From positions 9,789 through 73,788 of the forward strand of contig MU057654.1 of NCBI GenBank assembly GCA_013265495.1: a stretch of DNA of 64,000 bases. Reading direction: 5' to 3'. This document shows positions 15,185 through 32,275 of the stretch, piece after piece. Source of the stretch: Vicugna vicugna. Lineage: Eukaryota. Position 1 is the first letter of the stretch. Each line of letters begins with the position of its first letter. Under the pieces are notes generated by a model. The model did no database searches. It was not told the origin of the DNA and saw nothing but the letters and a program-made list of their open reading frames with translations. A program made the position numbers and the translations under genes.

Positions 15185-16556
15185 TGTCAGACATTCTCCA
15201 TAGATGAGAACAGGTCAAATGTTGGCATGCAAGTTTCCGGTGTGGAGAGAAGTGAACAAAGAAAGCGAAAAGGAAGTTGGTGAAATCAGTTGGGGTATAT
15301 GGATTTTGAAGTCCCTCGAGGATCAGGAAGTGGTGTCCAATAGACACTTGGCAAAAAGGGCCTGAGGCTCAGGGGAGGGAATAACCTGGATACGTAGATT
15401 TGGGAATCATCTGTGTTTAGAGGGAAATGAACAGAGATCACGCAAGGAGAGAGAACATGTGGACTAAAACAGGAGGCCCAGAACACCACTACTCAAGGTG
15501 GTAGCTCAATTCCCGGAGGGTATCACCACTTGGGCTCTGCAGTCAGGCAGAGCTGGTCTTGAAAGCGGGTTGTGGGGCTCGGTTGCTGAGCGCTCTTGGC
15601 GAAGTCGGGTACCCCGCTGTGATCAGCTGTCACAACCGGTGATAATGGACATCTCAGGGGGATGCTGCGCAAGGACCTGAGATGTGCCAGGTAAAGCACC
15701 TGCATCAGGAAGCCTCCTCCCTCCTGCTCTGTCAGTAACTCCCTCCTGCTCTGTCAGTAACTCCCTCCTCTCCAACCCCTGCCCCCCAAGGTCTGTCTGC
15801 AGCTGTTCGATCCCTTGGGGACGCGGGTGAGGGGGCGGAGCGGGGGGGAGCAGAGCTCGGGTGACGTGGCGCTCACGTGACCAGCCGGGCTCAGACGTGG
15901 GCAGCAGCCCCCGCGCGCGCCCGCCCGCCAGCCCTGCGGTCCGGTCCCGGCCGTGTCCGCTCGCATCGCCCGCGTGGAACCAGCTCCCCGAGCTCCCGGG
16001 GTGGCGGGCGAGGGGCGAGCGGGCTTAGGCGAGCCCGAGGAGGCGCAGGCCTGGCCCGGGCCTCGCAGGTCAGTGTGAAAGTGGGCGCTGCTGGAGGCCC
16101 GGGCGGCGCGGGAGGAGGATGAGAGGAGGATCCAGAAGCAGCGGGGCGGGGCCCGGGGAGAAGGGAAGGGTCCAGAGATGGGTGAGGAGGGGCACGGGGT
16201 GCGGCGTGGGCAGGTGGGGAGGGAGGACCCAGCAACCCATCCCGCCCCCTAGGACGCCCCTCCCCTGCACCCTACAGCCATTTTCTAGCCTGAACTGGGG
16301 TGGGGTGCGCCCCCGTAGTTCAACAGTGAAACAGACGAATTCTGAAAATAGCCCACCTGTCACACTCAGTGCCTATGAGAAAATAATGACTTCTGTGTAA
16401 AGGGGTGGGACTGGGGCGGGTTGCCTGCAGGGGAGGGGGCTACAGAGACCCAAAACAGTTTAGAAAGCATCCTGGTCAGATGCCTGATGCCTGAGAAAAG
16501 ATATGGCGACTGAGGTGCGGGGTCAAGGGAGGTGGGGGAGGAGACGTCTGATGAGG
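15185..16556 (+). repeat. Left arm of apparently exact 1372-bp inverted repeat (TCEAL promoter, exon 1, intron 1)
   Basis: Reverse complement of 30904-32275; mirrored ORF pairs have identical translations and coordinates summing to 47460; both ends checked base by base. Confidence 0.97.
15820..16320 (+). promoter_or_regulatory. CpG island promoter and exon 1 (donor CAG|GTCAGT at 16068/16069) of TCEAL2-type gene
   Basis: GC box GGGGCGGAG 15832-15840, TGACGTGG 15862-15869, TCACGTGAC 15873-15881, dense CpG. Confidence 0.85.
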
Positions 16557-16611
16557 CGGGCCCTGATTGCAACCACTGAGCTACCCAGCCTCTTCCCTTG
16601 TCTGTCTGCAG

Positions 16612-16684
16612 GTCTGCGAGGCTGTTGTTCCAGGTACTCTGCTGAGTTACGAAAAAAGGAGGAACCTGTCCAGAATCCCCGCAG
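16612..16684 (+). other. Non-coding exon 2 of TCEAL2-type gene
   Basis: Acceptor cttgtctgtctgcag| and donor cccgcag|gtcagt. Confidence 0.8.
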
Positions 16685-17059
16685 GTCAGTGAAAGAGGGG
16701 GGCACTGGACAGGGACTCAGAGGGGTAAGGAGTATGAAGGTCAGGCCTTGGCAGAAGTGCGGGCCCCACTGCCCACTTGCCAACACATTTACTCACACTC
16801 TGAACAAAAGTAAGGAAAAATAGCAGGGCCGGCCAGAGAGATGGTTGGCTCACGTGCAGAAGGACTGGTGGGGTAAAAGGTGGCAGAAGTCACACTAGGA
16901 GGGCCGGGCCAGGTCCGGGGAGCCCTGACAAGCAGCGAGAAGCAACTGCTATTCCGACCTGCATTCCAACCCCCAAGCCCTCAGTCTTCCTTGTCTCCTT
17001 TTTGTCTTCTCTTCCCCTCATCCCACCCCCAGGACATGAAAAGGAGGGGACATCTCAAC

Positions 17060-17692
17060 ATGGAAAAACTCTGCAGTGAAAATGAGAACCCAGGAAAGAT
17101 GGAAAACAGAGAACAGCCACTGGATGCGGGAAAGCCAGGAGTAGCTTGTACTGTGGAAGACAAGGAAAAGTTAGAAAACAAAGGAAGGATTGATCACAAG
17201 GGAAAGATAGAAGATAAGGACGTACTAAAGGATAAGGAAAAGCCAGAGAGTGAGGCAAAGCCAAGAGAAGGAAAGCCAGTGAGCCAGGGAAAGCCAGAGA
17301 ATGAGGGAAAACCAAAAGAAGGAAAGCTAGAGAGCGAGGGAAAGGCAAAAGAAGGAAAGCCAGCCAGTGAACCAAGGGCTGCAGGAAAGCGCCCAGCAGG
17401 GGACGATGTACCCAGGAAGGCCAAAAGGAAAACCAACAAGGGGCTGGCTCAGTGTCTGAAGGAATACAAGGAGGCCATACACGATATGCATTTGAGCAAT
17501 GAGGAGATGATAAGAGAATTTGATGAGATGGCCAGGGTGGAGGATGAGGTGAAGAAAACCAGACAAAAATTGGGGGGGTTTATGTGGATGCAAAAAAGTT
17601 TACAGGACCCTTTCTACCCCCGGGGCCCAAGGGAACTCAGGGGTGGCTGCAGGGCCCCACAAAGGGGCTTTGAAGACATTCCTTTTGTGTAG
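17060..17692 (+). CDS. TCEAL2: Transcription elongation factor A-like protein, TCEAL2/TCEAL4 type, 210 aa (218 aa if ATG 17036 is used)
   Basis: MEKLCSENE...[38 protein letters not shown]...[30 protein letters not shown] matches the TCEAL2/4 subfamily; TCEAL2 chosen from linkage to BEX5; acceptor at 17032; AATAAA 17858-17863. Confidence 0.85.
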
Positions 17693-29779: not shown

Positions 29780-30371
29780 TTAAAGATATGGGATATCATG
29801 TAAGCCCCTTTGGCCCCTACCTCCGCCTCTCATTCCCCTGACACCCCGTTGCCCCCTTGGGGTGAAGGGATCCTGTACATCTCTTTGCATCCAATGAAAA
29901 CCACCCATTTTCTGTTTTTTCCTTAGCTCCTCCTGAGCCCGTGACATATCTCCACATTCTCTCATCATCTCCTCACTGCCCAGATGCCTATGTAAGTCCT
30001 CGGTCCTTGGGGGAATCATCCGTCCCCCTGTCTGTTTTTCTTTTTGCTTTCCGGGGCACATAATCTTCAGCCGGGCGCTTTTCAGCAGCCCGTGGCTCGC
30101 TCTCCAGCTTTGCCTGGGATTCAGGCTTGCCCTCACCATGTGGTTTTCCCTCGGATTCAGACTTGCCCTGCTTTTCTTGCTTCCCCTCACCATATGGTGA
30201 TCCCTCATCTTCTGGCCGTCCCTCATTCTGGAGCTTTCGCACGTGTTCTGACTTCTCCACTTCCAGCTTTTCTTCCTCATCTGACTTCCCTTCATTTTCA
30301 GGCTCTACTTCATCTTCTGGCTTTCCCTCGCTTTCCAGCTTTCCTTCATTTTCATTGCAGAGTTTTTCCAT
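29780..30371 (-). pseudogene. TCEAL6: TCEAL3/5/6-type gene with a frameshift near 30001 (127-aa truncated ORF 30371-29988; canonical C-terminus in another frame to 29780)
   Basis: [24 protein letters not shown]...[30 protein letters not shown] in one frame, EDLHRHLGSEEMMRECGDMSRAQEELRKKQKMGGFHWMQRDVQDPF...GLHDIPYL in another; AATAAA on minus strand at 29546-29551. TCEAL6 chosen from linkage to BEX5/TCEAL2. Confidence 0.8.
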
Positions 30372-30761
30372 GTTGAGATGTCGCCTCCTTTTCCTGTGCT
30401 GGGAGGATGGGGTGGGGTGGGGAGAGAAGACAAAGAGGAGACAAGAGAGACTGAGGGCCTGGGGGTGGAATGCAGCTCCGGATAGCACTTGTATCTCGCC
30501 CTTGTCAGGGATTCCCTGACCTGGCCTGGCCTTCTTAGTGTGCCTTGTGACACACTTTAGCACACCGTTCCTCCTGTACATGAGAGCCAACCACTTCCAG
30601 GGCAGGCCCTGCCACCTTCTGTACCAACCTTCAGCGTGGAAGGAAGTGTGTATATTACATGTAGTGGGGGGTGGGCAGTGGGGCCCTCAAATTCTGCCTA
30701 AGCTGTGCCCTCCAAACCTGTCCCCTCAACTTGTCCAGTGCCCCATCCCACTTTCACTGAC

Positions 30762-30828
30762 CTGCAGGGACTCTGGACAGGTTCCTCTTTTCCTAGTCTT
30801 GCAGAGTGCTGGGAACAGACACGCGGAC
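30762..30828 (-). other. Non-coding exon 2 of TCEAL6-type gene (67 nt)
   Basis: Minus-strand acceptor gtctgtctgcag| and donor ccctgcag|gtcagt. Confidence 0.8.
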
Positions 30829-30903
30829 CTGCAGACAGACAGGAGACAGAGGCAGAGGCTGAGCGCTCAGTGAACTGAGATCCCTTTCCTGAATCTGGGC
30901 CTT

Positions 30904-32275
30904 CCTCATCAGACGTCTCCTCCCCCACCTCCCTTGACCCCGCACCTCAGTCGCCATATCTTTTCTCAGGCATCAGGCATCTGACCAGGATGCTTTCTAA
31001 ACTGTTTTGGGTCTCTGTAGCCCCCTCCCCTGCAGGCAACCCGCCCCAGTCCCACCCCTTTACACAGAAGTCATTATTTTCTCATAGGCACTGAGTGTGA
31101 CAGGTGGGCTATTTTCAGAATTCGTCTGTTTCACTGTTGAACTACGGGGGCGCACCCCACCCCAGTTCAGGCTAGAAAATGGCTGTAGGGTGCAGGGGAG
31201 GGGCGTCCTAGGGGGCGGGATGGGTTGCTGGGTCCTCCCTCCCCACCTGCCCACGCCGCACCCCGTGCCCCTCCTCACCCATCTCTGGACCCTTCCCTTC
31301 TCCCCGGGCCCCGCCCCGCTGCTTCTGGATCCTCCTCTCATCCTCCTCCCGCGCCGCCCGGGCCTCCAGCAGCGCCCACTTTCACACTGACCTGCGAGGC
31401 CCGGGCCAGGCCTGCGCCTCCTCGGGCTCGCCTAAGCCCGCTCGCCCCTCGCCCGCCACCCCGGGAGCTCGGGGAGCTGGTTCCACGCGGGCGATGCGAG
31501 CGGACACGGCCGGGACCGGACCGCAGGGCTGGCGGGCGGGCGCGCGCGGGGGCTGCTGCCCACGTCTGAGCCCGGCTGGTCACGTGAGCGCCACGTCACC
31601 CGAGCTCTGCTCCCCCCCGCTCCGCCCCCTCACCCGCGTCCCCAAGGGATCGAACAGCTGCAGACAGACCTTGGGGGGCAGGGGTTGGAGAGGAGGGAGT
31701 TACTGACAGAGCAGGAGGGAGTTACTGACAGAGCAGGAGGGAGGAGGCTTCCTGATGCAGGTGCTTTACCTGGCACATCTCAGGTCCTTGCGCAGCATCC
31801 CCCTGAGATGTCCATTATCACCGGTTGTGACAGCTGATCACAGCGGGGTACCCGACTTCGCCAAGAGCGCTCAGCAACCGAGCCCCACAACCCGCTTTCA
31901 AGACCAGCTCTGCCTGACTGCAGAGCCCAAGTGGTGATACCCTCCGGGAATTGAGCTACCACCTTGAGTAGTGGTGTTCTGGGCCTCCTGTTTTAGTCCA
32001 CATGTTCTCTCTCCTTGCGTGATCTCTGTTCATTTCCCTCTAAACACAGATGATTCCCAAATCTACGTATCCAGGTTATTCCCTCCCCTGAGCCTCAGGC
32101 CCTTTTTGCCAAGTGTCTATTGGACACCACTTCCTGATCCTCGAGGGACTTCAAAATCCATATACCCCAACTGATTTCACCAACTTCCTTTTCGCTTTCT
32201 TTGTTCACTTCTCTCCACACCGGAAACTTGCATGCCAACATTTGACCTGTTCTCATCTATGGAGAATGTCTGACA
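30904..32275 (-). repeat. Right arm of apparently exact 1372-bp inverted repeat (promoter, exon 1 ending 31392, intron 1 of TCEAL6-type gene)
   Basis: Reverse complement of 15185-16556. Confidence 0.97.

Follow-up and report, generated by a model that had tools for sequence, protein, structure and literature searches.

An identical inverted promoter and first-exon module in two neighbouring TCEAL genes of Vicugna vicugna, probably homogenised by recent gene conversion

TCEAL2 and TCEAL6 are neighbouring X-linked brain genes. In the stretch of Vicugna vicugna DNA analysed here, hereafter the window (64,000 nt; assembly GCA_013265495.1, contig MU057654.1, positions 9,789-73,788, forward strand), the locus reads BEX5(+), a TCEAL2-type gene(+) and a TCEAL6-type gene(-), and the two TCEAL genes share one and the same 5′ module: positions 15185-16556 are the exact reverse complement of 30904-32275, with 0 mismatches over 1372 bp. 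The two genes are convergent paralogs, and non-allelic gene conversion between their 5′ modules, recent and perhaps still under way, probably produced this block. It is a fresh instance, in camelids, of a type of conversion that has already been published for this gene cluster.

An exact inverted block within an old inverted duplication

The two copies of the block, or arms, were compared base by base on the coordinate sum 47460 and by ungapped identity in 100-bp bins, the wider alignment of the arms was made by blastn, and domains were identified with Pfam. An earlier note on this DNA, made from its letters alone, had claimed the 1372-bp reverse-complement identity together with identical mirrored open reading frames (ORFs) on the same coordinate sum. 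Its coordinates proved exact, and a pair of mirrored 93-amino-acid ORFs (16119-16400 and 31341-31060) is indeed identical. The sliding comparison of the arms that the note had suggested gave 100/100 in all 13 full bins of 15200-16499 and 9-47% elsewhere, mismatches resuming at 15184 on the outer side and at 16557, 16558 and 16564 on the inner side. A repeat search of the window displays a single long inverted pair as 100% identical (15176-16568 / 30892-32284, 1393 nt), while the other six of the seven inverted pairs reach 74-83%; neither direct repeats of at least 150 bp nor other long perfect repeats were found in the 64 kb. Chance cannot be the source of a 1372-bp identity.

Beyond the block, 14970-17643 pairs with 32485-29835, with a weaker extension to 19996 / 27328; this pairing shows the two genes to be opposite sides of one old inverted duplication, each side spanning about 5 kb. 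The heavy divergence that had been described outside the block was borne out: the arms are 70.6% identical over 14970-15184, 77.2% over 16557-17059 (end of intron 1, exon 2 and intron 2) and 66.4% in the coding sequence (CDS). The alignment of the arms runs in register across both edges of the block, and no target-site duplication, displaced sequence or junction scar was seen in the edge alignments. Exon boundaries were set from spliced processed retrocopies elsewhere in the same genome, two of which fix the exon-2 acceptor of the left gene at 16612; the inner end of the block therefore falls 55 bp (16557-16611) short of it, as had been noted.

The block comprises about 700 bp of upstream sequence, the core promoter, a CpG island, the non-coding exon 1 and the first 488 bp of intron 1, which is 543 bp long (16069-16611, from the retrocopy junctions). 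Its GC content is 60.7%, compared with 32-40% directly outside. The start of exon 1 at 15909 is a minimum 5′ extent, and the donor GT lies at 16069. Just upstream, positions 15861-15905 read GGTGACGTGGCGCTCACGTGACC...ACGTGGGCAGCAG, carrying TGACGTGGCGCTCACGTGA...ACGTGGGCAGCAG with the E-box included, and GCTCACGTGAC at 15871-15881 forms the E-box part of this BGW-type motif; the match to the published Hnrnph2 BGW consensus was made by eye, with no formal motif score. That consensus, with its E-box, appears in supplementary Fig. S6 of Navas-Perez et al. 2020 (PMC7586669). Within the window, the BGW-type pattern occurs in the two arms only; it is also conserved in the promoter of TCEAL3, located on another scaffold (C8919). 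A 22-bp tandem duplication present in both arms and absent from that promoter is a derived state common to the two arms. The coordinates of these features are collected in Table 1.

The arrangement is reminiscent of the palindromes of sex chromosomes. Like the X palindromes of Jackson et al. 2021 (PMC8327919), it consists of near-identical inverted arms around a unique spacer, is X-linked and is consistent with arm-to-arm conversion. In the excerpts of that work, the palindromes have arms of many kilobases that contain whole testis-biased gene families, whereas only a regulatory module is involved here and the palindrome has otherwise decayed. Indeed, the arms of sex-chromosome palindromes are more than 99% identical over their full length, while the identity seen here covers 1372 bp of old arms of about 5 kb, the rest standing at 64-83%.

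Table 1. Features of the TCEAL2/TCEAL6 locus in the window (positions are those of the window).
Feature	Position	Strand	Basis and remarks
BEX5 coding exon, locus anchor	3812..4153	+	113-aa ORF; Pfam BEX
Left half of old inverted duplication	14970..19996	+	pairs with 27328-32485 at 64-83% outside block
Left arm, 5′ module of TCEAL2-type gene	15185..16556	+	exact run; GC 60.7%, 71 CpG
22-bp tandem duplication, 2.4 copies	15717..15769	+	in both arms; not in TCEAL3 promoter
CpG-island core	15785..16184, mirror 31276-31675		GC ~75%, CpG observed/expected 0.78-0.91
BGW-type promoter motif with E-box CACGTG	15861..15905, mirror 31555-31599	+, mirror -	by-eye consensus match
Exon 1, non-coding	15909..16068, mirror 31392-31551	+, mirror -	retrocopies C4377, C1658; camelid gene models read through
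Spacer between arms, 14.3 kb, both gene bodies tail to tail	16557..30903		reversed relative to published BEX5-TCEAL6-TCEAL2
Exon 2, non-coding, TCEAL2-type gene	16612..16684	+	retrocopy junctions, alignment; outside block
Exon 3 and TCEAL2-type CDS	17033..17692	+	ATG 17036 or 17060, stop 17690-17692; BEX domain intact
Right half of old inverted duplication	27328..32485	-	blastn alignment
Exon 3 and TCEAL6-type CDS	29780..30398	-	ATG at 30371; frameshifted
Exon 2, non-coding, TCEAL6-type gene	30762..30828	-	75 bp past inner end of right arm
Right arm, 5′ module of TCEAL6-type gene	30904..32275	-	exact reverse complement of left arm

Gene conversion as the probable origin

Gene conversion is favoured because the tract is perfect and sharp-edged and lies in register within diverged homologous sequence. 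Since its flanks are themselves homologous in register (70.6%, 77.2% and 66.4%), the tract appears to have replaced homologous sequence rather than to have been inserted. The derived 22-bp tandem duplication present in both arms likewise speaks for conversion. One copy would have suffered a break at or close to its CpG-island promoter, with the inverted copy of that chromatid or chromosome serving as repair template; the repair would have overwritten at least 1.37 kb while leaving the gene body untouched. The transfer probably went from TCEAL2 to TCEAL6, a weakly supported direction that is proposed because the identity between TCEAL3 and the TCEAL6 gene is about 95% in the body as far as the block edge and 85% within the block. 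A neutral rate of 1-2.2e-9 substitutions per site per year was assumed. With zero differences in 1372 bp, the last conversion would then be no older than roughly 0.5-1 million years, provided that the identity is real and the assumed rate holds. The two transcription units would have an identical promoter and an identical exon of the 5′ untranslated region (5′-UTR) at their start.

Comparison with other camelids is consistent with a shared module. Two Camelus gene models from different species, P0185 (TCEAL2-type) and P0197 (TCEAL6), translate exon 1 into the same 49 residues and then enter a gene-specific exon 2, and exon 1 of the TCEAL3 model P0191 differs from that of both. One exon-1 codon sets the window apart from the camelid models, both arms having GTG in place of an Ala codon.

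A precedent exists within the same gene cluster. In the BEX/WEX(TCEAL)/GASP cluster, conversion limited to the first 5′-UTR exon and the BGW element has been described by Winter and Ponting 2005 (PMC1274310), the events being lineage-specific and involving genes whose coding parts have diverged or are unrelated. Excerpts of this study report zero substitutions between the BGW motifs of mouse Bex2 and Bex3, a pseudogene (GASP10psi) acting as a conversion partner, and a joint analysis of the first exons of WEX1 (TCEAL2), WEX2 and WEX8 (TCEAL3) in Fig. 3B. Those cases and the present one share the Xq22 cluster, a converted promoter with its first non-coding exon, and diverged coding exons. Indeed, both partners in the window are BEX/TCEAL genes located beside BEX5 (Pfam BEX, database names), the promoter of the block contains a BGW element with an internal E-box by eye, and the 5′ parts are 100% identical over 1372 bp, compared with 66.4% for the CDS. 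The present tract differs in its length, 1372 bp at the genomic level, the published figures being 57 bp for a motif and 383 bp for one example; in its reach, which takes in about 700 bp of upstream DNA and 488 bp of intron 1; and in its setting, an inverted pair around a 14.3-kb spacer in a camelid, a group that the study did not include. Read as conversion, the block indicates that BEX/TCEAL 5′-UTR conversion can extend over the entire proximal promoter and the greater part of intron 1. The earlier note had proposed a conversion restricted to the regulatory module; the perfect in-register tract and the published precedent speak for this proposal, which is not a new principle and competes with possible homogenisation of the two copies by the assembler.

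Several points weigh against recent conversion of a tract of this size and direction. The exact identity of the two copies is known from the assembly sequence alone, and that assembly contains N gaps, with a run of 1150 N directly ahead of the window and one of 500 N on a different scaffold. The support from other species is at the protein level, comes from gene models only, and covers about 147 nt of exon 1 in two different species, and the GTG state common to both arms would be expected equally from assembly collapse. The GC excess of the block over its flanks could be explained by the CpG island alone, and the donor assignment leans on one coincidence of tract borders. In addition, conversion tracts rarely exceed 1 kb in the excerpts of Aguado et al. 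2014 (PMC3961182), compared with 1.37 kb here. As an observation on the assembly itself, the 1150-N run (L021, C604:8639-9788) ends exactly where the window starts, and would be either an assembly gap or a stretch whose letters were kept back.

Other explanations for the identity

The strongest rival is an assembly artefact, in which the two modules would be similar (e.g. 97-99.5%) or the right one a gap, one consensus having been written twice; this is unlikely, yet less so than any other alternative. High-GC islands are typically poorly covered by short reads, and the block includes an island of 75% GC. Because the assembly is scaffolded across runs of N, near-identical repeats could have been merged or gap-filled from a paralog. 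The perfection of the 1372 bp also contrasts with the 94.7-97.8% of other conversion tracts in this family, and the orientation of the spacer is contradicted by another camelid assembly, so that the region must be regarded as hard to assemble. However, the edges of the block are in register with the old paralogous alignment and lack junction scars, no further long perfect repeat occurs in the 64 kb, and two other camelid assemblies give the TCEAL2-type and TCEAL6-type genes the same exon 1, unlike that of TCEAL3. The assembler evidently does not merge every similar paralog, since other conversion tracts have been kept imperfect (97.8% for TCEAL2-TCEAL4 and 94.7% for TCEAL6-TCEAL3). Moreover, a collapse itself needs near-identity, so recent conversion would still be implied.

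In 14 DNA runs from 4 organisms, 0.87-0.91 of the sampled words of 13800-18300 were present, and 5 RNA runs were found as well, these shares being uninformative on arm identity, orientation, expression or the frameshift described below. A 37-nt word near the inner edge of the block had 0 matches in a metagenome scan. An exact protein look-up found one of seven window ORFs, the TCEAL2-type one; the lack of a match for the other six (two junction-spanning, one internal to the block and three in TCEAL6 frames) is uninformative.

A recent inverted duplication or insertion could also have placed the promoter and exon 1 of one gene in front of the other, as in exon shuffling, and would likewise have yielded two identical, sharp-ended copies. 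This is very improbable: the sequences flanking the block on either side remain homologous in register at 70-77%, the exon 1-intron 1-exon 2 structure is colinear in both genes, nothing is displaced, and no target-site duplication was seen at the edges. Such shuffling was argued against for this cluster in the excerpts of Winter and Ponting (PMC1274310).

Finally, purifying selection alone might be thought to have kept an old duplicated regulatory module unchanged, given that the block has a promoter motif of functional appearance, conserved in the promoter of TCEAL3 too, yet this can be practically dismissed: not a single base differs even in the 488 bp of intron and in upstream DNA whose composition is ordinary, the TCEAL3 module is just 84.9% identical, and exon 2 and the CDS stand at 66-77%. 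We know of no constraint that keeps every base of 1.4 kb. Two other candidates were rejected: conversion with the BEX5 promoter, as the block has no match in the rest of the window, and a foldback or chimeric-read artefact, as a 14.3-kb unique spacer with two different genes separates the arms.

Gene bodies shared with distant paralogs

TCEAL4 and TCEAL3 stand in tandem on another scaffold (C8919:223311-234220), and the two gene bodies of the window were compared with them. The left CDS is 97.8% identical to TCEAL4 (619/633 aligned bases, longest exact run 216), compared with 84.4% for intron 2 and 67.9% for the 3′ flank, the identity dropping sharply to 68% directly past the stop codon. Judging from this profile, the similarity of the left CDS to TCEAL4 appears to be a second, coding-only conversion tract. 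The body of the right gene is 94.7% identical to TCEAL3 (1407/1485, longest exact run 148) and 84.9% inside the block. At the block edge, 100% identity to the neighbour gives way to about 92% or more to TCEAL3, which mildly favours TCEAL2 as donor. Each gene is thus a three-way mosaic, with a 5′ module common with its neighbour and a body common with a distant paralog. The earlier note had held that the coding regions evolve independently; this does not hold, since the left one is homogenised with TCEAL4 (97.8%) and the right one with TCEAL3 (94.7%).

Homogenisation of coding parts between Tceal2 and Tceal4 and among Tceal3, Tceal5 and Tceal6 has been reported in all eutherian lineages (Navas-Perez et al. 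2020, PMC7586669; Lawson et al. 2009, PMC2724270), and the pairing of the TCEAL2-type gene with TCEAL4 and of the TCEAL6-type body with TCEAL3 follows the same pattern. The published events, in the excerpts of both papers, concern gene bodies and distant partners, whereas the block in the window concerns a 5′ module and an adjacent partner. The locus offers a clean case, at the genomic scale, of a regulatory module copied between paralogs while the coding exons follow other partners, with tract edges mapped to the base. For camelid TCEAL2 and TCEAL6, it would make orthology calls, expression inferred from promoters and short-read mapping unreliable.

Processed retrocopies of TCEAL2/4-type transcripts were observed at three loci (L009, C4377:231213-234719; L005, C1658:2935190-2938275; L008, C8256:24123377-24126934), two of which keep exon 1 and so record the spliced 5′-UTR. 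The reading frame of the C4377 retrocopy contains a TGA, and a gap of 500 N lies close to this copy. Two further contigs (L013, C6805:1078-4488; L014, C6918:3631-7041) contain seemingly near-identical TCEAL retrocopies in opposite orientation and, their match statistics being near-identical, may be duplicate contigs of one locus.

Swapped gene bodies and orientation of the spacer

The earlier account had overlooked that the order of the gene bodies is swapped relative to the conserved one. In human, the genes are arranged as TCEAL2(+), TCEAL6(-) and BEX5(-), with the same order and orientation in dog and mouse (PMC1274310) and with a TCEAL6-BEX5 distance of 10.7 kb (PMC2724270). The published order TCEAL2-TCEAL6-BEX5 applies to human, mouse, horse, dog, manatee and armadillo. 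In the window, by contrast, the TCEAL2-type body adjoins BEX5 and is co-oriented with it, BEX5 sitting 11.7 kb upstream, and the TCEAL6-type body is distal and on the opposite strand. In another camelid assembly, one hypothetical protein (P0219) combines residues 1-90 of BEX5 with exon 2 and the CDS of a TCEAL6-type gene; this places the exons of BEX5 and the TCEAL6-type gene on the same strand, as they are joined in one model. The two parts of P0219 map to opposite strands in the window, and an assembly error is possible in either assembly.

The swapped order is about equally likely to reflect an inversion through the arms or an assembly error in the orientation of the spacer. High-identity inverted repeats do bound the spacer, and a crossover outcome of the same recombination that leads to conversion would flip the 14.3 kb and exchange the gene bodies between the arms. 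Such a flip fits the swapped order because recombination between the arms would swap the bodies and leave both genes unharmed. A double conversion, of TCEAL4 into the BEX5-proximal gene and of TCEAL3 into the distal one, was considered less parsimonious than one flip, since the left body resembles the TCEAL2/4 type beyond the recent tract and into intron 2 (84.4%, compared with 67-83% to the other type). The literature search, made on excerpts, found no described inverted repeat or inversion of the TCEAL6-TCEAL2 pair.

Inversions mediated by inverted repeats are known elsewhere, for instance the FLNA-EMD inversion on Xq28. Human polymorphic inversions of this kind (Aguado et al. 2014, PMC3961182) likewise combine high-identity repeats, a gene-bearing spacer, conversion between arms and two orientations. 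The present locus differs from them, as far as the excerpts go, in that two orientations are known solely as a disagreement between assemblies. Furthermore, the arms here measure 1.4 kb and lie inside both genes, so that a flip would exchange bodies between promoter contexts rather than reorder whole genes. It may tentatively be proposed that the arms act as a recombination cassette, although we consider this somewhat doubtful: flips would put the TCEAL2 and TCEAL6 bodies in two chromosomal and enhancer contexts, the orientations would coexist or vary among camelids, and conversion would keep the cassette perfect. Such a proposal includes that each body keeps an intact promoter-exon 1-intron 1 junction and that one partner gene is decaying. 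If the flip is true, the breakpoints of the inversion would lie inside two genes and would have damaged neither. In any case, the orientation of this spacer is untrustworthy in assemblies made without spanning reads.

The two genes and their surroundings

The assignment of the two genes to the TCEAL2/4 and TCEAL3/5/6 subfamilies, claimed in the earlier note, agrees with database names and clusters. The 218-amino-acid product of the left gene clusters with camelid proteins named TCEAL2 and TCEAL4, and the N-terminal frame of the right gene matches TCEAL6 best, followed by TCEAL3/5. The Pfam domain BEX (PF04538) was found in both genes and in BEX5; it is whole in the left protein and split across two frames in the right gene (profile positions 9-53 and 36-106). 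Compared with the intact TCEAL3, the TCEAL6-type CDS has 3-bp deletions at 30256/30255 and 29992/29991 and a 5-bp deletion at 30002/30001 that shifts the frame, leading to a stop at 29990-29988, while the C-terminal half goes on in another frame to 29780. Homopolymer runs are the typical place of sequencing errors, and these indels do not lie within such runs. The statement that one promoter would drive two different proteins is therefore doubtful, because the 5-bp deletion breaks the right coding region and splits its BEX domain over two frames.

The TCEAL6 model of another Camelus species is labelled LOW QUALITY PROTEIN; it lacks the 5-bp deletion and has a different C-terminal frameshift. 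From these reading frames, TCEAL6 looks to be decaying in camelids, and the different frameshift suggests that the decay is independent in separate camelids. With its frame broken, the TCEAL6-type copy may serve mainly as a conversion partner, and, with the block read as conversion, a frameshifted copy can stay one. In exon 2 of the left gene, 16646-16648 reads TGA where the Camelus TCEAL2 read-through models P0184 and P0185 have Trp; this is probably without effect, since it lies in an untranslated leader.

The identity of the neighbouring BEX gene is well supported: the exact protein of its ORF is found in a 90% cluster that has 29 members, of which 25 are named, and all 14 of the named ones listed are BEX5. 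An alternative reading of the locus as BEX3-TCEAL4-TCEAL3 with an inverted TCEAL3 was rejected, as the BEX ORF is BEX5 and TCEAL4 and TCEAL3 stand in tandem on scaffold C8919.

Elsewhere in the window, LINE-1-like ORF fragments occur at 60211-60774 (+) and 62994-63524 (-), within 56500-63600, and mutually inverted repeats of 74-83% identity at 56547-57062 / 60306-60794. The ORF at 36863-37054 is a run of Met and Val codons that corresponds to a trinucleotide microsatellite.

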